Origin: Candidatus Eiseniibacteriota bacterium
GTDB taxonomy: Bacteria; Eisenbacteria; RBG-16-71-46
Assembly (NCBI GenBank): GCA_963707915.1
Contig: OY970178.1
Location: 701,821 to 765,820 of the forward strand
DNA: 64,000 bases
Direction of reading: 5' to 3'
Below, one piece after another: positions 28,462 through 61,186 of the stretch; position 1 is the first letter of the stretch; every line of letters begins with the position of its first letter. The notes below the pieces were generated by a model. That model was not told where the DNA came from. It saw only the letters and a program-made list of their open reading frames with translations, and did not search any database. Made by a program: the position numbers and the translations under genes.

Positions 28462-30450
28462 ATGCGACGCCTCGTCCTTGCCGCGCTAACGCTCACCGTC
28501 GTGCTGTCCGCCCCACCGGCGGCGGCCGCGACGGACTCGCCCGCTCGCCCCACGATCCAGCAGTTCCTTCGCATCCGCACCCCCGGCGCCCCGGTCATCC
28601 TGCCGGACGGCTCGCTGCTGCTGCGCGACTGGCCGGACGGCGTGCGCCAGCTCTATCGCGTCGTGCCGAAGCTGCGTGACGGACAGGAGCCCTCGTACCA
28701 GCCGGGCGAGGCGACGACCCTCCGGCTCACCGACTTCCCGGACGGGCTCTCGGGCTTCTCGCTCTCGCCCGACGGGAGCAAGGTCATCCTCTCGCATGCG
28801 CGCGGCGGCAACGAGAACACGCAGCTGACCCTGCTCGACCCGCTGGCGGAGCCCGGCAAGGGACTCACCCCGCTCTTCGCGAACCCGAAGGCGCAGGCCG
28901 CGGTGAACGCCTGGCTGCGGGACGGCTCGGGCTTCGTCTACTCGGCGAACGACGAGAGCCCGAACGACTTCTACCTCTACCGCTACGACTTCGCGACCGG
29001 CCGCACGACCCGGCTGCTGGGGGAGAGTGGCTCCTGGTCGGCCCAGGACATCACGGACGACGGCCGGCGCCTGCTCGTGCAGAAGTACCTCTCGGCTTCC
29101 GACGCGCAGTGCTACGAGCTGGACCTCGCCACCGGCCGGCTGAAGGACCTGACCATCCGGCCCGAGGGCGGGACCGCCGCCTGCTCGTTCGCGGGCTACA
29201 TGCCGGGCGAGCGCTCCGTGCTCATGCTGTCGGACCTCAAGGACGGGATGCAGCGCCTGTACCTGAAGGACCTCAGGAGTGGCGCGGTGCGCGAGCCGGT
29301 CCCCGCGCTCGGCCGCTTCGAGCTGGACGGCGCCGGTCCCAACGACGGGCGCGACTACCTCTTCGCCATCGCGAACGAGGACGGCTACGGCGTCCTGAGC
29401 GTCTTCACCCTGCCGGACTTCAGGCCGGTGCCCATGCCCGCGACGGACCCCGGGGTGATCTCCGTCGCCTCGTTCCGGGGCCCCACGCTGGTCTGGACGC
29501 TCGGCAACTCCCGCACGGCCGGCACCGCCTCCGCCACCACCTTCACGCGGCCCGCCCGCGGCCCCACGACGCAGCACACGCGCCAGCTCACCTGGACCCA
29601 GGACCAGGGCATCGACCTGAAGAGCTTCCCGCTGCCCCGGCTGGTCCGCTACCCCGCGTCCGACGGCCGGCAGATCCCCGCCTTCCTGTTGCTGCCGCCG
29701 GGCCACGTCGCGGGGACGCCCGTCCCGTTCGTGATCGAGTACCACGGTGGCCCGGAGGGCCAGAGCCGGCCGGGCTTCAGCGCCACCGACCAGTACCTGC
29801 TCTCGCGCGGCTTCGGCATCCTGCTGCCGAACGTCCGCGGCAGCACCGGCTACGGGCGGGCCTACCAGATGCTCGACGACTACAAGGGCCGCTGGGGCAG
29901 CGTCCGCGACGGGGTCGACGCCGCCGAGTGGCTGGTGAAGAGCGGGTACGGCGCGCCCGGGAGGATCGCCGCCTACGGCGGCTCCTACGGCGGCTTCATG
30001 TCCGTGGCCTGCGTCGTCGAGGACCAGGAGCGCGTCGAGCGCGGCGAGCGCCCGGAGCGCCTGTTCGGCGCCTGCGTGGACATCGTGGGCATCGTGAACC
30101 TGAAGACCTTCCTCGAGAAGACCAGCGGGTACCGGCGCAAGCTGCGCGAGGTGGAGTACGGCCCGCTCACCGATCCGGAGTTCCTGACCAGCATCTCGAG
30201 CCTCGAGCGCGTGGACAAGATCCGGGTGCCGGTCTTCATCGCGCACGGCTTCAACGATCCGCGCGTGCCGGTGCAGGAGGCGATGCAGCTGGCGACGGCG
30301 CTGAAGGAGCTCGGCCGCGAGCCGCGCCTGTTCGTCGCCCCCGACGAGGGACACGGCTTCGCGAAGCTCGACAACCGGGTCTACTTCAACGAGCGGATGA
30401 CGCAGTTCCTCGACGAGACCATCGGTGGCGGGAGGGGGGCGGCCCGGTAG
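28462..30450 (+). CDS. S9-family serine peptidase (prolyl oligopeptidase/acylaminoacyl-peptidase-like) with N-terminal beta-propeller
   Basis: Signal peptide; C-terminal alpha/beta hydrolase with nucleophile elbow GGSYGG and catalytic Asp/His region (HGFNDPRVP...DEGHGF). Confidence 0.8.
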   Translation: MRRLVLAALTLTVVLSAPPAAAATDSPARPTIQQFLRIRTPGAPVILPDGSLLLRDWPDGVRQLYRVVPKLRDGQEPSYQPGEATTLRLTDFPDGLSGFSLSPDGSKVILSHARGGNENTQLTLLDPLAEPGKGLTPLFANPKAQAAVNAWLRDGSGFVYSANDESPNDFYLYRYDFATGRTTRLLGESGSWSAQDITDDGRRLLVQKYLSASDAQCYELDLATGRLKDLTIRPEGGTAACSFAGYMPGERSVLMLSDLKDGMQRLYLKDLRSGAVREPVPALGRFELDGAGPNDGRDYLFAIANEDGYGVLSVFTLPDFRPVPMPATDPGVISVASFRGPTLVWTLGNSRTAGTASATTFTRPARGPTTQHTRQLTWTQDQGIDLKSFPLPRLVRYPASDGRQIPAFLLLPPGHVAGTPVPFVIEYHGGPEGQSRPGFSATDQYLLSRGFGILLPNVRGSTGYGRAYQMLDDYKGRWGSVRDGVDAAEWLVKSGYGAPGRIAAYGGSYGGFMSVACVVEDQERVERGERPERLFGACVDIVGIVNLKTFLEKTSGYRRKLREVEYGPLTDPEFLTSISSLERVDKIRVPVFIAHGFNDPRVPVQEAMQLATALKELGREPRLFVAPDEGHGFAKLDNRVYFNERMTQFLDETIGGGRGAAR

Positions 30451-44272: not shown

Positions 44273-45310
44273 ATGGCCCACCGATTCCAGACCCCCGCCG
44301 GCTACCGCCCCGCACTGACCGCCCTCGAGACGGAGAAGGCGATCAAGGAGGTCAAGGACTTCTTCCAGGCCGCCCTGGCCCAGGCCCTGAACCTGCGCCG
44401 CGTGACGGCGCCGCTGTTCGTGGAGGCCGGCACCGGCATCAACGACGACCTGAACGGGGTGGAGCGCCCGGTCACGTTCACCGTGAAGGACCTCGGGAAC
44501 ACGACGGTCGAGGTCGTGCAGTCGCTGGCCAAGTGGAAGCGGTTGGCCCTGGCCGACCTGGCGATCCCCGCGGGCGAAGGGATCTACACCGACATGAACG
44601 CCATCCGCCCGGACGAGACGCTGGACAACCTCCACTCCATCTACGTCGACCAGTGGGACTGGGAGCGCGTGGTGGTCGCCGGGGAGCGCAACCTCGACCT
44701 GCTGAAGGCGACGGTGCGGGACATCTACCGCGCCATCCGCCGCGCCGAGGCGTTCGTCGGCGAGCGCCATCCGGTCCTCGGCGCCAGCCTGCCCGAGGAG
44801 ATCACGTTCGTGCACGCCGAGGAGCTCCAGGCGCGCTTCCCGCACCTGTCGCCCTCGGAGCGGGAGACGCAGGTCGTCCGCGAGCACGGGGCGGTCTTCG
44901 TGATCGGGATCGGCGCGCCGCTGGCCGACGGCAAGCCCCACGACGGCCGGGCCCCCGACTACGACGACTGGAGCACCCCCAACGGGCGCGGAAACGGCCT
45001 GAACGGGGACATCCTGCTCTGGTACCCGGTGCTGGACGCGGTCTTCGAGGTCTCCTCGATGGGCATCCGCGTGACCCCGGAGTCGCTGCGCCGGCAGCTC
45101 GCGATGTCCGGGCAGACCGCCCGCGAGGGCCTCTACTTCCACCGCCGCCTGCTCGCCGGCGAGCTGCCGCTCTCGATCGGTGGCGGCATCGGGCAGTCGC
45201 GGCTCTGCATGCTGCTCCTGAAGAAGGCGCACATCGGCGAGATCCAGGCCGGCATCTGGCCGGCCCGGATGCGCGCCGAGCACAAGGAGCGCGGCATCCT
45301 CCTGCTGTGA
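44273..45310 (+). CDS. asnA: Aspartate--ammonia ligase (asparagine synthetase A)
   Basis: Strong collinear similarity to E. coli AsnA from memory (SLAKWKR, GEGLYT, RPDE, SVYVDQWDWERV, RAPDYDDWSTP, GLNGDIL, SSMGIRV, IGGGIGQSRL). Confidence 0.9.
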   Translation: MAHRFQTPAGYRPALTALETEKAIKEVKDFFQAALAQALNLRRVTAPLFVEAGTGINDDLNGVERPVTFTVKDLGNTTVEVVQSLAKWKRLALADLAIPAGEGIYTDMNAIRPDETLDNLHSIYVDQWDWERVVVAGERNLDLLKATVRDIYRAIRRAEAFVGERHPVLGASLPEEITFVHAEELQARFPHLSPSERETQVVREHGAVFVIGIGAPLADGKPHDGRAPDYDDWSTPNGRGNGLNGDILLWYPVLDAVFEVSSMGIRVTPESLRRQLAMSGQTAREGLYFHRRLLAGELPLSIGGGIGQSRLCMLLLKKAHIGEIQAGIWPARMRAEHKERGILLL

Positions 45311-45457
45311 GCCCGCCCCCGCGCCGGGTGGTGGCCGGGGTCGGGGTCCCGGGCCTTCGGCGCGCAGTTGGAAGTCGCCGCCGCTGCGCGTAGGCTCGGC
45401 GCGGCGCGGCGGGAGACCCGCGGCGGTTCGTCGGAACCTGGGAACGGGAGGGACTCG

Positions 45458-45874
45458 ATGAGACTCGGGAGCGTTTGCCTGGTGGCGGCCGCGATCACGG
45501 TGCTGGCGTGCGGCGAGGCGGCCGCGGTCAAGCGAGCGGCCCAGGCCCGGCCGGCCGTCCAGGGCGCATGGGAACTGGTGTGGCCGGAGAAGACCGGCCA
45601 CGAGCGGCAGATCAAGCTCATCACGCCCACGCATTTCACCTGGACCTGCTGGGACACGGAGACCCGCCTCGTGCTGGCGAGCGGCGGCGGCGGCTACACG
45701 CTGGTGGGGGACGGCTACTGCGAGCAGCTGCTCTTCGCCCAGGGTTACGCGGAGCACCTCGGCGGACAGGTCCTGTGCTTCCAGGTGAAGGTCAAGGGCG
45801 ACACGCTGTTCCAGTTGAGCCCCCCCGGCGAGGACGGCATGCGCTCGCGCGAGGTGTGGAAGCGGATCCGCTGA
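45458..45874 (+). CDS. Hypothetical small secreted/lipoprotein-like protein
   Basis: 138 aa; N-terminal hydrophobic signal with Cys (VLACGE); RBS gggaggga; no family recognised. Confidence 0.5.
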   Translation: MRLGSVCLVAAAITVLACGEAAAVKRAAQARPAVQGAWELVWPEKTGHERQIKLITPTHFTWTCWDTETRLVLASGGGGYTLVGDGYCEQLLFAQGYAEHLGGQVLCFQVKVKGDTLFQLSPPGEDGMRSREVWKRIR

Positions 45875-46218
45875 CGCATGGATCCGCGGCGCCGTCAGGG
45901 AGGCGGGAGGAGAGGGCCGGCGGTGCCGTCCAAGGCGATCCCATGCGACGGGCATCCCCGGGCGCTCCCGCCTCACCCGTCGTCGATGCTCCACACCCGC
46001 CGGGCTCCCGCCGGCCGCGTCGGCCCCGGTGGCGCCGCAATCGCCGCAGCGGCCACGCACCGTCCCTCTGGCACGCGTGATGCTGTAGCCCGGCGTGGGG
46101 TGGGGGGTGTGCGGCTCGGCATGCACCAGAGCATGACAGCCTCTCCGGGCCAGCCCCACCCGCCTCACCTGGCCGACGACACTTCACGCGGCTCCCTGGA
46201 CTCACCCGCCGAGAGGGA

Positions 46219-47103
46219 ATGGACACCATGCGCAGACCGATCACGCTCGCCATGGCCGCGGCCATCGTGCTGCTGGCCGGGGCCGCCGGCCTCTTCTTCA
46301 CCAAGTACATGACCACCAAGTACGAGTACAACGACGTGAAGAACGCCGAGGAGTCGGCCCGCTCGCAGTACGCCGACGCGTTCAGCGCCATCGCGGAGAT
46401 CCAGGACAGCCTCAACGCGATCGCCATCGGCGACCGCGGCCTCCCGATGGTCTCGGACGGGCTCCGGGCCGAGCAGCGCCTGACGCAGCCCAACAAGCGC
46501 GAGGCCCTCGAACGCATCGCCATGCTCAACGCGGGCGTCGAGCGCACCAAGGAGAAGATCCGGCGCCTCGAGGGGACCCTCCATCGGAAGAACCTCCGCC
46601 TGGACGGCCTCGAGAAGCTGATCGCCACCCTCAAGCGCGACCTCTCCGGCAAGGAGATGCTGATCGCGCAGCTCTCGGGCAGCGTGGACTCCCTGCAGAC
46701 CGAGGTCACCGGGCTGCAGGGCACGGTCGTGGCGAACCAGACCGCGATGCGGGTGCAGGAGCAGACCATCGAGGAGAAGCGGCACGAGCTCGCCACCGTC
46801 GAGGTCATCGTCGGGACCAAGAAGGACCTGACGTCGTCCGGCGTCATCACGGCCAGGGGCGGCGCGCTGGGCCTGGGTCGAACCCTGGTCCTCTCCGGCC
46901 GCTTCGACCAGGGCCGCTCCACCCCGCTCGACACCGACCAGGAGACCATCGTCCGGGTCCCGGCCGCGAAGGTGGAGATCCTGAGTCCTCAGCCCGCCTC
47001 GAGCTTCACGGTGCAGGCGGTCGGCGGCCAGACCGAGATCCGCATTCTCGACCCGATGGAGTTCCGGAAGGTCAGGCACCTCGTCATCATGACGAAGGCC
47101 TAG
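46219..47103 (+). CDS. Hypothetical membrane-anchored coiled-coil protein
   Basis: 294 aa; N-terminal TM (ITLAMAAAIVLLAGAAGLFF), long heptad-like central region, C-terminal beta-rich region; lower GC than neighbours; stop TAG lies within the IS target-site duplication. Confidence 0.5.
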   Translation: MDTMRRPITLAMAAAIVLLAGAAGLFFTKYMTTKYEYNDVKNAEESARSQYADAFSAIAEIQDSLNAIAIGDRGLPMVSDGLRAEQRLTQPNKREALERIAMLNAGVERTKEKIRRLEGTLHRKNLRLDGLEKLIATLKRDLSGKEMLIAQLSGSVDSLQTEVTGLQGTVVANQTAMRVQEQTIEEKRHELATVEVIVGTKKDLTSSGVITARGGALGLGRTLVLSGRFDQGRSTPLDTDQETIVRVPAAKVEILSPQPASSFTVQAVGGQTEIRILDPMEFRKVRHLVIMTKA

Positions 47104-47104
47104 G
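47099..47104. repeat. Target-site duplication CCTAGG (left copy) of the IS481-family element
   Basis: Identical palindromic hexamer immediately flanks both IS termini. Confidence 0.7.
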
Positions 47105-48165
47105 TGTGGAGTCTCAGGACGTTGTTCTCACCCGGGGTCGCAACCGACTGAAGGGTGGTAGGCCGTCCAGACTACCGTGTGGACGTCTCTGGTTGTAGTA
47201 GCGAAGCCAGCGGGGCAGGACGCGGGCCCGGACCTCGGAGGTCAGGTAGGCGGCCCCGTAGGCCCACTCGCGGATCAGGGTCTGGATGAAGCGCTCGGCC
47301 TTGCCGTTCGTCCTCGGGCGGTAGGGCCGCGTACGTTTGTGGACCAAGCGCAGCCGTTCCACCTCGTGAGCAAAGCAGCGCGCGAGGTAGCCCGAGCCGT
47401 TGTCACTGAGGATTCGGCGGATGCGGATGCCCAAGGTGCGGAACCAGGCCACAGCACGACGCAGGAACGCTGCCGAGGTCACGCCGGTCTCGTCCCGCAG
47501 CACCTCGGCATAGGCGATCCGGCTGCGGTCGTCGATGGCGACGTGCACGTAGTCCCAGCCCACCCGATGACCCCGTCGCCGGCGGTCTCCGGTGATGCGG
47601 TGACCGTAGAAGCCACTGATCCGCCCCAGTTTCTTGACGTCGAAGTGGAGCAGGTCCCCCGGGCGACGATGCTGGTAGCGGTTCGCGGGCTCCTGCGGCT
47701 CGAGCTTCTGGAGCCGTTCCAGCCCGGCGCGTTTGAGCACCCGCGCCACCGTTGCCCGCGGACGCTTCAGGTCCCGGGCGATCTGCGGCCCGGTCATCCT
47801 CGTGCGCCGCAGCAGCAGGATCATCTCCCGCCATTCGATCGGGGTCGCGTGGGGGTGGCGCCGAGGCCGCGAGCTGCGGTCCTGCAGGCTGGCCGAGTCC
47901 TCGGCCTGGTAGCGGCCCAGCCACTTGTGGGCCGTCCGGCGGCTGATCCCTGCGGCCGTGGCCGCTCGGGTCACGCTCCAGCCCGACTCCCGTACCCGGC
48001 CAACAAGCAGTGCTCGACTGGCAGGGCAGGTCCGTGCTCCACTGTGGAGGTTCATCCGGGGTTCCTCGCTGGTCAGACGTTGACGGCTTCGAACACCACC
48101 AACATCTGTCAGAAGGACCCCGGTTGAACAGTCTCAACCTGTGAACAACCTAGTGAGACTCCACA
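47105..48165 (-). mobile_element. IS481-family insertion sequence, 1061 bp, apparently intact
   Basis: Imperfect terminal inverted repeats beginning TGTGGAGTCTCA (left 47105-47129 vs reverse complement of 48141-48165, about 20/25 identical); single DDE transposase ORF; 6-bp CCTAGG duplication. Confidence 0.8.
47114..48055 (-). CDS. IS481-family DDE transposase (integrase core domain)
   Basis: 313 aa; N-terminal HTH; rve-type catalytic core (HFDVKKLG...DNGSGY...RTNGKAERF). Confidence 0.9.
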   Translation of the reverse strand: MNLHSGARTCPASRALLVGRVRESGWSVTRAATAAGISRRTAHKWLGRYQAEDSASLQDRSSRPRRHPHATPIEWREMILLLRRTRMTGPQIARDLKRPRATVARVLKRAGLERLQKLEPQEPANRYQHRRPGDLLHFDVKKLGRISGFYGHRITGDRRRRGHRVGWDYVHVAIDDRSRIAYAEVLRDETGVTSAAFLRRAVAWFRTLGIRIRRILSDNGSGYLARCFAHEVERLRLVHKRTRPYRPRTNGKAERFIQTLIREWAYGAAYLTSEVRARVLPRWLRYYNQRRPHGSLDGLPPFSRLRPRVRTTS

Positions 48166-48171
48166 CCTAGG
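48166..48171. repeat. Target-site duplication CCTAGG (right copy) of the IS481-family element
   Basis: See left copy at 47099-47104. Confidence 0.7.
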
Positions 48172-48187
48172 CGTCCGACGCCCCGCC

Positions 48188-48224
48188 CTGGACCCGCGCG
48201 GCACCACCCCGCCGCGCGGTCCAG
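48188..48224. other. GC-rich hairpin (about 13-bp stem with one bulge, 9-nt loop) between the IS and the convergent downstream gene; possible terminator remnant
   Basis: CTGGACCCGCGCGG-caccacccc-GCCGCGCGGTCCAG; no U-tract on either strand, so not a canonical intrinsic terminator. Confidence 0.3.
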
Positions 48225-48246
48225 GCGCCGGGGGCCGTGCCCTGGT

Positions 48247-50052
48247 CTAGGCCGTCTCGCCGGGCCCCGCCACCTTCAGCCACGAGAACCACAGCGGGTG
48301 GTGCCGCTTGTACCAGCGCAGCACCTCGAGCAGCACCTTCTGCTGCTCGGGCGGGATCACCTCGGGCGGGATGCGATCGAAGTGGATGCGCATCTGCTGC
48401 TGGTCCAGGTACTCGATCGCCTCGGAGCACAGCGTCTGGAGCTCGTTGCGGATCCGGCCCGAGTCGGAGATCTTCACCGGCCGGGTGCGGAAGTCCTCGC
48501 CGTAGATGAAGCGGGTGAGCAGCGGGTTGAACACCAGCCGCGACACCCGGCGGTCCTCCATCAGGCGCAGGGTGAACAGCAGGCGCTTGTCGCCACGCGC
48601 CGTCGCCAGCCGCACCCCCACGCGGTAGGTGCCCGGCGCCGTCTCCACGACGCCCGCGGCGCCGGAGTAGGGGTCGTCGCGCATGTAGCCGGAGAGCGCC
48701 ACGACCTCCCAGCGCTTCTCGGGGAAGAAGTCGTCGGCGCCGATGACCGGCTTCTCGAGCGGGATCCCCGAGTCGCGGGCCTCGAGGATCAACCCGCGGT
48801 AGGCGGTCTGCCCGGCCTCGTCCACCGGATGCCCCAGCCGCGCGGCCAGCCGCCCGGCGAAGTCCGGGCCCTCCGGGTCGAGGTGCATGATGTGCTGTTC
48901 GGATTCGTAGGGCAGCTCGAACCTCGACGTGAACACCGCCAGCGAGGCCTCGAGGCCCAGCATCGGCGCCAGGCTCGCCGCCTGCATCGCCTCGGCCGAC
49001 GCCGCGTAGCCGTCGCACAGGAAGAGGTGCGACTGGCCGTCGCCGTCGGTCCACGCGCCGATCCGGTAGGTCGGGGCGTAGGTGCCGGACTCGTTGAAGG
49101 CCTTCATCCCCGAGGGCAGCACCCAGCCGTCCTCGACCACGTGCGCGCCGGCCGCCCGCCACTCGTCCCAGAGCTTCCCGATGCGCACCTCGCGGCTCTT
49201 CCCGCCCAGGGTCCAGACGTGGACGTTCCCGCGCTGCAGCCCGGGATAGGCCGCCTCGATGACCTCCATGACCCGCCCCCGCGGCGTACGGTAGTCGATC
49301 AACAGCGACTGCTCGGCGGCCTTCTCGACGACGACGCGGGGGAGGAACAGGTTCCCGACGTAGCCTTCGTAGGGGCGCCTCATCCGCAGCGGCTGGTCGA
49401 ACAGGTGCAGCACCGTCAGCGGCCCGGTGAGCTCGCCCTTCGCGAAGCGGGAGGTGTTCTCCAGCGTGTCGATGGCGGCGCCCCAGATGGTGATGCCGGC
49501 CGCCTTCACCTCGCGGTAGAAGGTGTCCCAGCCGTACTCCGGGAAGTTCAGCATCCGCGTGACCCGCTGCTCGAGCCAGCGCGCCACCTGCGGCCGGGCG
49601 TAGATGCGGCCGTAGCCGAGCTGGGGGTTGGAGCCCATCTCGGGCGTCTCCCCGGCCTTGGGCATGAGGCCCTCGCCCAGGCACACCATGATCGCGTGGT
49701 TCTCCGGCAGGTGCCGCGAGGCGAACCACAGGCCCTCGCTCATGGCGTAGGCGGAGATCGCGTCGGCGTCCTTCTTGACCTGGTTGAGCCCGGTCTTGTC
49801 CTTGCCCTGGCCCTCGCCGAAGCGGCCGAAGAGCTGGGTGCCCAGCGCGGTGACCGCCACCGTCATGGCCATCAGCCGCTCCATGCGGCCGTCCAGGAAG
49901 GAGATCTCGCCGGTGAACTCGGCCACGGGCTCGCCCCGGATCCACTCCACCGAGACGTCCTCGAGCCACAGGTGCAATCGACCCAGGATGGGACGGGTGT
50001 CGAAGGCCCACTGCGCGATCCGGTCCCGCTTGAGTCGATCCGCCTCGCTCAT
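48247..50052 (-). CDS. Large GlpX-like (class II fructose-1,6-bisphosphatase superfamily-like) protein with about 200-aa C-terminal extension; function unknown
   Basis: 641-aa ORF; preferred start ATG 50052 (601 aa); segments paralleling GlpX motifs as I recall them (IMVCLGEGLMPKAGETPEMG; WGAAIDTLENT; CDGYAASAEAMQAASLAPMLG). Confidence 0.45.
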   Translation of the reverse strand: MSEADRLKRDRIAQWAFDTRPILGRLHLWLEDVSVEWIRGEPVAEFTGEISFLDGRMERLMAMTVAVTALGTQLFGRFGEGQGKDKTGLNQVKKDADAISAYAMSEGLWFASRHLPENHAIMVCLGEGLMPKAGETPEMGSNPQLGYGRIYARPQVARWLEQRVTRMLNFPEYGWDTFYREVKAAGITIWGAAIDTLENTSRFAKGELTGPLTVLHLFDQPLRMRRPYEGYVGNLFLPRVVVEKAAEQSLLIDYRTPRGRVMEVIEAAYPGLQRGNVHVWTLGGKSREVRIGKLWDEWRAAGAHVVEDGWVLPSGMKAFNESGTYAPTYRIGAWTDGDGQSHLFLCDGYAASAEAMQAASLAPMLGLEASLAVFTSRFELPYESEQHIMHLDPEGPDFAGRLAARLGHPVDEAGQTAYRGLILEARDSGIPLEKPVIGADDFFPEKRWEVVALSGYMRDDPYSGAAGVVETAPGTYRVGVRLATARGDKRLLFTLRLMEDRRVSRLVFNPLLTRFIYGEDFRTRPVKISDSGRIRNELQTLCSEAIEYLDQQQMRIHFDRIPPEVIPPEQQKVLLEVLRWYKRHHPLWFSWLKVAGPGETA

Positions 50053-50278
50053 GACGCGTCCCTTTCCGGCGGGTTCGCCCCGACCGCTTGCATCCCGTCC
50101 CTGGCCCCGTCCACGCCGTCCCGGGAGCCGCCCGCGCGGGCCCGCTCCCGGTGGGGCACCCACCGAAGCCACCGCAGGCTAGCAGGACCGCGAAAGCCGG
50201 GGCAAGGACGACCGGATCGCGGACATCGCGCGTGGACGCGGCCCGCGCGCCCCTGCAGGACGAGAGGCGAGACGGAAC

Positions 50279-59021: not shown

Positions 59022-59525
59022 ATGGACTTCCAGGACCTGATCCGCGCCCGCTACAGCTGCCGTGCCTACCTCGACACGCCGGTCGAGGAGGAGAAGCTCG
59101 CGGCCGTGCTCGAGGCGGCTCGCCTCGCGCCGACGGCGGCCAACCGCCAGGCCTTCCGCGTGCACGTGCTCACGACCGCCGGCCGCCACGACGAGTTGCG
59201 CCGGCTCTACGCGCGCGACTGGCTCGCGCAGGCGCCGCTGGTGATCGGCGTCGCCGGGGAGCCCGCCCGCGGCTGGGTGCGCCGCGACGGGCGCAACTAC
59301 GTGGACGTGGACTGCGCGATCGTCATGGACCACCTCGTGCTGCAGGCCGCCGACCTCGGCCTCGGCACCTGCTGGATCGCGGCGTTCGACCCGCCCGCTG
59401 CGCGTGAGCTTCTCCAGCTGCCGCCCGGGTGGGAGCCGATCGCGTTCACGCCGCTGGGGTATCCCGCCGACACCTGCCCGCCCAGGAAACGCCGGCCGCT
59501 CGAGGAGATCGTGACCCGGCGGTAG
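59022..59525 (+). CDS. Nitroreductase-family protein
   Basis: 167 aa; nitroreductase fold motifs (RYSCRAY, LAPTAANRQAFRVHVL, DLGLGTCWI). Confidence 0.8.
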   Translation: MDFQDLIRARYSCRAYLDTPVEEEKLAAVLEAARLAPTAANRQAFRVHVLTTAGRHDELRRLYARDWLAQAPLVIGVAGEPARGWVRRDGRNYVDVDCAIVMDHLVLQAADLGLGTCWIAAFDPPAARELLQLPPGWEPIAFTPLGYPADTCPPRKRRPLEEIVTRR

Positions 59526-59607
59526 GCCTCATCCGCTGGCGCGCTTTCGGGGAGCCGGTTGAACCGCCTGCGCCGCTGATCGCGGCGACGAATCCGTGAC
59601 TGCTTCC

Positions 59608-60831
59608 CTAGGAGAGGAACAACCTGCGGTCGAGGTCGCCGGCCCGGACGGGCTTGCCTTGCAGGATGGTCCACTCGGGGATGATCCGCCTGGAGGTCCG
59701 GCGGATGTCGCCGGTCACGTCCTTGCAGGTGAATTCACCCTCGGCCAGTCTGAAGACGGTGAGGAAGGCTTCGGCGCCGGGCCGGATCTCCCGCTCGAGC
59801 TTGAGGAACTTCGCCGGCCCCGTGCTCGCCCGTTCCATGATCGCGGCGAGTGGCAGGCCCAGCGCCAGGAACTTGGTCAGCACATTGGCAAGAGTCTTGG
59901 CAGAGCCCGTGCTGAGGATATAGAGGTCGGAGCTGATGGTGAAATCGAGAAAGCCCTGGTCGAGCGCCTGCTCGGCCGCCTTGAACTCGAAGCTCGCCAT
60001 GCCGTGGCCGACGTCGAACTTCACGCCCCGGGCCAGGGCGTCTTTCACCGCCTCGTGAATCTTGCCGTTCTGGTCAATGATGCTGTTGCCATGGCCGCGC
60101 AAGAAATGCGTGACGACGTCGCCTTCCTTGAGATAGGGAAGCATATCCGTGAGGTAGGGCGGCGGTGGGCCGATATGGGCCATGCCCGGCAGATGGAGCA
60201 GGTCGCCGGCCTCGCGCAGCTTCTTCACGTAGTAGAGCTGGTCGGAGCGCGGCGACACCTGCTTGTCGGCCCGCACCTTGAGACCCACGATGCGGTGATT
60301 GCCTCCGGCGATGAGCTTCTCCATGGCCGGCAGATCGGCCCAGCCTTCCTTGGTCCGATAGTACTTGGTGATCTCGATCCCGTTCTTGACCACGCTCAGG
60401 AGGGCGAAGCAGGGCACTTCAGGGTTCGGTCCGACCGCGCGCTCCAGGCGGTCATAGTTGTTCACGCCCGTGGTGCCGGCGTCGAGCAGCGCGGTCACGC
60501 CGTGCGCCGCGCCCAGCCGCGAGATGGGTGACCCCGCGCTCTTGCCGTGTTGCCAATCCACGTAGTGAACGTGCAGGTCCACCCAGCCCGGGGAGACGTG
60601 GAGATCCCGGCCGGAAATCGTCTGGCCGGCTGAGGCCAGACTTCCCGGCGCGGCAATCTCGGCGATCCGGCCGTCCCGGATGCCCAGGTCGCAGCGCGAG
60701 AAGGACCCGCCCATCAGGGCCTGCACGTCGCGGAGCACCAGGTCGGCGACCGGCGCGGCCCAACCGCGGCCGGCCACCATCAGCCCCGCGGCGGATGCCG
60801 CGGTCCGCTTCACGAAGTCACGGCGCTTCAT
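59608..60831 (-). CDS. Tat-secreted metal-dependent amidohydrolase-family protein
   Basis: Twin-arginine signal MKRRDFVKRTAASAAGLMVAG; amidohydrolase-like metal ligands (HVHYVDW, GHG, FDVGHG); GGAGG RBS; lower GC than flanks. Confidence 0.7.
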   Translation of the reverse strand: MKRRDFVKRTAASAAGLMVAGRGWAAPVADLVLRDVQALMGGSFSRCDLGIRDGRIAEIAAPGSLASAGQTISGRDLHVSPGWVDLHVHYVDWQHGKSAGSPISRLGAAHGVTALLDAGTTGVNNYDRLERAVGPNPEVPCFALLSVVKNGIEITKYYRTKEGWADLPAMEKLIAGGNHRIVGLKVRADKQVSPRSDQLYYVKKLREAGDLLHLPGMAHIGPPPPYLTDMLPYLKEGDVVTHFLRGHGNSIIDQNGKIHEAVKDALARGVKFDVGHGMASFEFKAAEQALDQGFLDFTISSDLYILSTGSAKTLANVLTKFLALGLPLAAIMERASTGPAKFLKLEREIRPGAEAFLTVFRLAEGEFTCKDVTGDIRRTSRRIIPEWTILQGKPVRAGDLDRRLFLS

Positions 60832-61186
60832 CCTTCTGCCTCCGCAAGCTGGTACGTCGGCCACTATCCCGCCCCCGGACTCGCGGTTCAAGCGGCATCT
60901 TTCTTCCCATCGATCGCCCTCCGATCCCGGGACCGATCACGCGTGTTCGATAGAAGGGTGGAGGCGCCCTTGCTGCCCCTCCCGGCGATGAGGCCCAGGC
61001 TCCCTCTGGGCCGGGCACCGTCGGGCCGCCCGTGCCGCATCCTGCCGGCGGGGTGCTATATTGCCCACGAGGTTCATGGGAGGGAGGGGCTCGCTGGCCG
61101 CGCTTCCCGAGCAGCTCGCGATCTTCAGCGCACGTACCACCGTTTCCGCCGCGCCCCTCGGTGCGGCCGACGAAGGAGGTCCAAGC

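Follow-up and report, generated by a model that had tools for sequence, protein, structure and literature searches.

The locus lies within a stretch of 64 kb, to which we refer in its entirety as the window, and consists of two convergent genes with an insertion sequence (IS) between them. The first gene (46219-47103), which ends in a TAG codon at 47101-47103, codes for a protein of 294 aa that has a hydrophobic N-terminal segment and a coiled coil. The second is a minus-strand ORF of 641 aa (48247-50172), whose end at 48247 lies 75 nt past the right-hand copy of the hexamer CCTAGG. Between the two copies of this hexamer, as can be read directly from the sequence, is a 1,061-bp IS (47105-48165). 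Its only long ORF encodes the transposase, the TGA stop of which sits within a terminal repeat. The coordinates of the individual features are collected in Table 1.

Table 1. Features of the insertion sequence and its immediate surroundings (positions are those of the window)
Feature	Position	Strand	Remarks
Complete IS481-family insertion sequence	47105..48165	-	1,061 bp, 67.5% GC; identical copy at L001:782-1842
Left 6-bp target-site duplication CCTAGG	47099..47104	.	Includes the TAG (47101-47103) at which the coiled-coil gene (46219-47103) natively stops
Right 6-bp target-site duplication CCTAGG	48166..48171	.	Read from the sequence
Terminal inverted repeat at the 3' end of the transposase gene (IRR, ISfinder convention)	47105..47130	+	Holds the transposase TGA, 47114-47116
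Terminal inverted repeat upstream of the transposase gene (IRL, ISfinder convention)	48140..48165	-	Internal CTAG at 48150-48153
Transposase gene	47114..48055	-	313 aa; N-terminal HTH/leucine-zipper region (LZ_Tnp_IS481) and rve DDE core D139, D218, E254 (catalytic roles assigned by position)
5' leader of the transposase mRNA	48035..48165	-	Predicted stem-loop, in which an upstream segment pairs with the Shine-Dalgarno GAGGA and the AUG
GC-rich hairpin in the original 75-nt spacer of the convergent genes	48176..48237	.	Inverted repeat I2; predicted fold -55 kcal/mol, z -4.1

The element begins with TGTGGAGTCTCAGGACGTTGTTCTCA and finishes with the reverse complement of TGTGGAGTCTCACTAGGTTGTTCACA. 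These two terminal inverted repeats agree at 22 of their 26 positions and open with 12 exact matches; the stretch of exact match is TGTGGAGTCTCA, and both ends start with TGTGG. A 23-nt degenerate pattern of the repeats occurs only twice in the 64 kb, once at each end of the element, against an expectation of 0 from shuffling. The window contains the hexamer CCTAGG only three times, and in two of these cases it adjoins an end of the inverted repeats exactly. The rarity of the hexamer and its exact abutment to the repeats place this arrangement far beyond chance. Searches of the 64-kb window by blastn, by tblastn and with the degenerate pattern revealed no further copies, fragments or solo inverted repeats, and an Rfam scan of the window returned only three tRNAs, with nothing inside the IS. 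A 1061-bp element with imperfect inverted repeats and a single DDE transposase had been predicted from the sequence, and this description is borne out. The terminal repeats, on whose presence the prediction depended, are indeed there and unique in the 64 kb.

Members of the IS481 family are about 1-1.3 kb long and contain a single transposase ORF that involves no programmed frameshift; their imperfect inverted repeats span about 20-30 bp and begin with TGT. The present element agrees with this description in its length, its single 313-aa ORF and its ends, and its relatives share the same architecture. The transposase scores 285.7 bits against the NCBIfam model NF033577 (transpos_IS481; cut-off 224), with model positions 2-284 of 284 covered, and remains below the cut-offs of the models for rival families (IS3, 89.2 against 160; IS21, 52.7 against 160; IS630, 43.4 against 100). 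In Pfam, it matches LZ_Tnp_IS481 (PF13011; 61.2 bits, cut-off 22.2) together with rve and rve_3. The residues D139 (in the motif HxDxKKLG), D218 (DN) and E254 (NGKAE) do not vary among the 14 transposases aligned, namely the query and 13 relatives at 41-84% identity. As judged from the sequence, the DDE core is intact, with the catalytic role of the triad assigned by position. The element is a new, unnamed member of the known IS481 family and exhibits every family feature that we examined, so that the family assignment made in the original prediction stands. A consensus scan, which is uninformative for this taxon, detected no sigma-70-like promoter for the transposase.

The coiled-coil protein belongs to a large family of unknown function (646 hits, typically of 283-295 aa and at 98-99% query coverage), with no real Pfam domain and with a conserved C-terminal domain ending in HLVIMT. 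One homologue, P0026, is labelled as Eisenbacteria, and a 50%-identical paralogue, P0113, appears to sit on the same 3.62-Mb contig. The homologues share the C-terminus ...HLVIMTK/A, and two of them finish in an identical HLVIMTKA. Because they have this same C-terminal end, the TAG in the left duplication represents the native stop, and the protein has been neither shortened nor extended. This confirms the earlier claim that an insertion at the stop codon truncates neither of the two convergent genes. The closest homologues (64-66% identity) are followed by different downstream genes, and are therefore uninformative with regard to the ancestral empty site.

On the other side of the IS, the 641-aa convergent ORF has no Pfam match at E ≤ 0.01. 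Exact-protein look-up of this ORF, in both its 641-aa form and a 601-aa form with a later start, returned nothing on record, and the recorded start codon probably differs from those of the forms that were looked up. The hairpin predicted in the original spacer is, judging by its fold, probably a shared terminator or 3' stabiliser of the convergent genes, and the coiled-coil gene is now cut off from it by the IS. The hairpin lacks a T-tract, and a consensus scan, which is uninformative for this taxon, detected no T-tract terminator.

To place the insertion among its kin, we gathered about 90 relatives from genomes and metagenomes. The genome scan yielded 57 loci with related transposases, distributed among Eisenbacteria, Acidobacteriota, Actinomycetota, Gammaproteobacteria and others, and the metagenome scan with the 26-nt end yielded 34 further copies at 79-88% nucleotide identity. 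CTAG adjoins the end in 33 of these 34 metagenomic copies, and most of the complete genomic copies are flanked by directly repeated NCTAGN hexamers.

The same survey showed that related transposases can be numerous within one genome. The Solirubrobacteraceae MAG YX3bin26 has seven related IS481-family loci (L013-L018 and L027), two of which, L017 and L018, are about 6.7 kb apart on one contig, and the Acidobacteriota MAG MFD00964.bin.2.69 has eight (within L021-L028 and L033). Most of these loci are complete elements with NCTAGN duplications, which indicates bursts of a related IS481 clade in unrelated phyla. Many metagenomic copies carry unequal flanking hexamers, for example GCTAGC on one side and GCTAGT on the other (L061, L062, L069, L071, L076, L081, L082, L083, L085, L088 and L091); such copies could have recombined with one another or mutated, or the assembly could be chimeric at the repeat.

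The palindromic nature of CCTAGG makes a repeat finder extend the inverted repeat across the hexamers (I1, arms 47093-47130 and 48140-48177, 38 nt, 84% complementary). It is thus conceivable that the hexamers form the outer part of inverted repeats of about 38 nt, in which case the element would be 1,073 bp long, there would be no duplication, and the coiled-coil gene would be borrowing the stop codon of the element. This reading is countered by a second copy of the element. An unrelated ENA metagenome contig (L001) encodes exactly the same transposase; the element there (782-1842) agrees at 1,061/1,061 bases and has CCTAGC on either side. An extended inverted repeat would instead give CCTAGC...GCTAGG, so that the direct repeat of L001 already refutes this reading. 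Deleting the L001 copy together with one CCTAGC restores a continuous 329-codon tyrosine-recombinase frame, and hence the L001 copy is a genuine gene-disrupting insertion with a 6-bp duplication. Non-palindromic hexamers also occur in direct repeat among the relatives (ACTAGC, TCTAGG, CCTAGC, CCTAGT, GCTAGA and CCTAGA), and the coiled-coil homologues that are free of the IS stop at the same residues as the protein described here. We therefore regard longer inverted repeats as extremely unlikely. NCTAGN has been described as the recognition sequence of IS481 (PMC3053399). On the combined evidence of the flanking sequences, CCTAGG is a true 6-bp target duplication with the predicted NCTAGN preference, and the suspicion that the hexamers are coincidental finds no support in the directly repeated CCTAGC around the identical copy. 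The identical IS in L001 (776-1848 with its flanking hexamers) splits a tyrosine-recombinase (phage-integrase) gene that is located beside an HTH_17 excisionase-like gene.

The existence of two base-identical copies at different loci argues for very recent movement, and the recent mobile-element activity that had been proposed for this locus is supported by the identity of these copies. One might nevertheless suspect that the element stems from an old insertion, has decayed and lost its mobility, and only looks intact, given its single copy in the window, its imperfect inverted repeats and the undetected promoter. Such a relic would hardly be expected to have a counterpart at another locus with zero differences over 1,061 bp, nor to combine a full-length ORF covered end to end by the IS481 model, an intact DDE triad and a perfect 6-bp duplication. 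Frameshifts or changes of catalytic residues were not seen, and the same mismatch positions in the inverted repeats are kept in relatives of 79-88% identity, so that the mismatches represent a trait of the family and not decay. We consider a relic very unlikely. IS481-family transposases are able to mobilise cargo genes (PMC6794481), and the element could in principle be part of something larger, forming one end of a composite or cargo-carrying transposon of the IS481 type that resembles TnRErm46. However, both inverted repeats and both direct repeats are found immediately around the transposase gene, the 23-nt repeat pattern is absent elsewhere in the 64 kb, no second transposase copy is present there, and the L001 copy is bounded in the same way, at 1,061 bp; we assign this possibility a negligible weight. 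Having considered and rejected all three alternatives (hexamers within the inverted repeat, a decayed relic and a composite transposon), we hold it to be nearly certain that the locus contains an intact, recently active IS481-family IS, inserted at a CCTAGG that holds the TAG stop of the coiled-coil gene.

A further line of evidence on the recency of the insertion comes from assembled reads. A 1,942-bp Logan contig from run ERR12037368, corresponding to window positions 45163-47104, contains an identical coiled-coil gene and stops one base past the TAG, on the final G of the left CCTAGG. In an assembly graph built with k=31, a flank beside a multi-copy repeat would normally continue for about 25-30 bases into that repeat. 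A contig that breaks precisely where the IS was inserted is what one would expect if occupied and empty sites were mixed. The position of the contig end thus suggests that both alleles may coexist in the ERR12037368 sample. The junction of an empty allele would read ...GAAGGCCTAGG joined directly to CGTCCGACGCC. A search of JGI metagenomes for an empty site or an alternative allele with the 3' end of the gene and CCTAGG (GTCATCATGACGAAGGCCTAGG) gave 0 hits, as did a search of viral contigs for the end of the IS.

The position of the insertion at a stop codon can be understood from the scarcity of CTAG. This tetranucleotide has 16 occurrences in the window where about 70 would be expected from dinucleotide-preserving shuffles, a depletion of about four-fold. 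When the duplicated site is counted once and the CTAG internal to the inverted repeat is left out, 14 native sites are obtained, and at least 9 of these 14 constitute the TAG stop of a long ORF with a third-position GC of at least 0.89. The third CCTAGG of the window (59607-59612) likewise provides the stop of a 427-aa ORF on the minus strand (59608-60891) and represents an unoccupied potential target. Since the CTAG sites that remain are mostly TAG stops, a transposase that requires CTAG will usually hit a stop codon here, and the duplication regenerates that stop. Among 46 related insertions with usable flanks, the duplicated TAG serves as the stop of the neighbouring gene in 19 by a conservative codon-bias criterion; the L001 copy shows that the element also inserts at CTAG inside genes. 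A comparable arrangement has been reported for TnRErm46, in which the TAG of the left direct repeat supplies the stop codon of the target gene (PMC6794481). Landing on a stop codon is the expected outcome of CTAG targeting in a CTAG-poor, high-GC genome and not a coincidence, and this explanation is already published.

The transposase gene is preceded by a structured leader. The 110 nt between the upstream inverted repeat and the AUG are predicted to fold with -61 kcal/mol (z -4.4), and in this fold TTCAACCGGGGTCC, a segment further upstream, pairs with the Shine-Dalgarno GAGGA and the AUG. This structure is preserved among 22 distinct copies (79-100% identity). The inner helix exhibits G-C/G-U switches and one compensatory pair; the helix that occludes the ribosome-binding site is invariant and so lends no covariation support. 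According to this folding model, the hairpin probably occludes the ribosome-binding site of the transposase and limits translation from read-through transcripts. Insertion sequences such as IS10 and IS50 are well known for masking their translation signals on read-through transcripts, and such an arrangement would make sense in the present case because the transposase gene lies downstream of the convergent gene and on the same strand.

Taken together with the target preference, this leader invites a more far-reaching reading, which we put forward tentatively and think somewhat less probable than its opposite. In CTAG-depleted genomes of high GC, where the majority of the surviving CTAG sites are TAG stops, the NCTAGN specificity may amount to a built-in safe-harbour strategy, of which the present element would be one example and in which the element lands on stop codons, the duplication regenerates the stop, and the leader that occludes the ribosome-binding site silences the transposase against read-through from the host. 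If true, the IS481 clade would be close to neutral, and its spread across phyla would be accounted for.

The insertion had also been placed in a region of lower GC. The window averages 72.4% GC. The IS, at 67.5%, ranks among the lowest 3% of all segments of 1,061 bp, and the coiled-coil gene has 68.0%; the 4 kb around the insertion, taken without the IS, have 70.3%. The claim therefore holds for the IS and the coiled-coil gene, but the rest of the neighbourhood is near normal, and much of the dip is the IS itself. The lowest-GC stretches of the window are found at 59300-60000 and 30000-30300 (about 65-66%) and fall below the IS.

These observations can be combined into a model for the origin of the locus. 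A single DDE transposase would recognise the two TGT...GTTGTTC terminal inverted repeats and insert the element at NCTAGN with duplication of 6 bp, here CCTAGG. The target would have been the CCTAGG that holds the TAG stop of the gene for the conserved coiled-coil/membrane protein. The left duplicate regenerates the stop, leaving the coiled-coil protein unchanged, and the convergent gene is likewise intact. The insertion has parted the coiled-coil gene from the hairpin that had followed its stop, and has brought the transposase gene into an orientation antisense to the coiled-coil gene and downstream of the convergent gene. Transposition probably proceeds by copy-out-paste-in, and the IS may affect the expression of its neighbours. 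A copy-paste mechanism is thought to hold for the IS481 family in general (PMC6794481).

What we see is a locus that marks a currently or recently mobile element, that is a likely cause of assembly breaks and that may be polymorphic between strains. In this high-GC lineage, where the CTAG target of IS481 elements coincides with TAG stops, insertions of the clade are biased towards gene ends and do the least harm, as has already been noted for TnRErm46. The element behaves as published, and its importance beyond annotation is small.

Like IS481 of Bordetella pertussis, the type element of the family, the present IS is about 1.04-1.06 kb long, has a single DDE transposase with an N-terminal HTH/leucine-zipper region and imperfect inverted repeats, and it generates a 6-bp duplication with the consensus NCTAGN (PMC3053399). 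Membership of the family is judged by the curated models PF13011 and NF033577, and the host here is an uncultured high-GC bacterium and not a beta-proteobacterial pathogen. With ISRe46/TnRErm46 of Rhodococcus equi, the element shares CTAG targeting, an NCTAGN direct repeat beside the inverted repeat, and a TAG in the left direct repeat that acts as the stop of the target gene (PMC6794481). TnRErm46, however, is a 6.9-kb transposon with cargo whose transposase uses the TAG of the direct repeat as its own stop (PMC6794481), whereas the element described here is a bare IS. ISLxc2 of Leifsonia xyli has 1,105 bp and an NCTAGN direct repeat (PMC2516522), and its inverted repeats (TGTGTTTCTCAGGGACGTTGGT) resemble the present one (TGTGGAGTCTCAGGACGTTGTTC) (PMC2516522). 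The transposases of ISLxc2/ISLxx4 stop within the host insertion site (PMC2516522); the present transposase, unlike those of ISRe46 and ISLxc2, stops at a TGA inside its own inverted repeat (47114-47116). The nearest relative of any kind is an 84% identical transposase in a Candidatus Eisenbacteria MAG (L002); taken with the Eisenbacteria label of the coiled-coil homologue P0026, it gives a hint, though no proof, of the lineage of the host. The nearest named relatives that we found, in a plasmid collection, are ISBcen26-like elements on Burkholderia plasmids, where an "IS481-like element ISBcen26 family transposase" aligns over its full length at about 49% amino-acid identity. With so distant a named relative, a new name is due under the usual criteria for naming insertion sequences.
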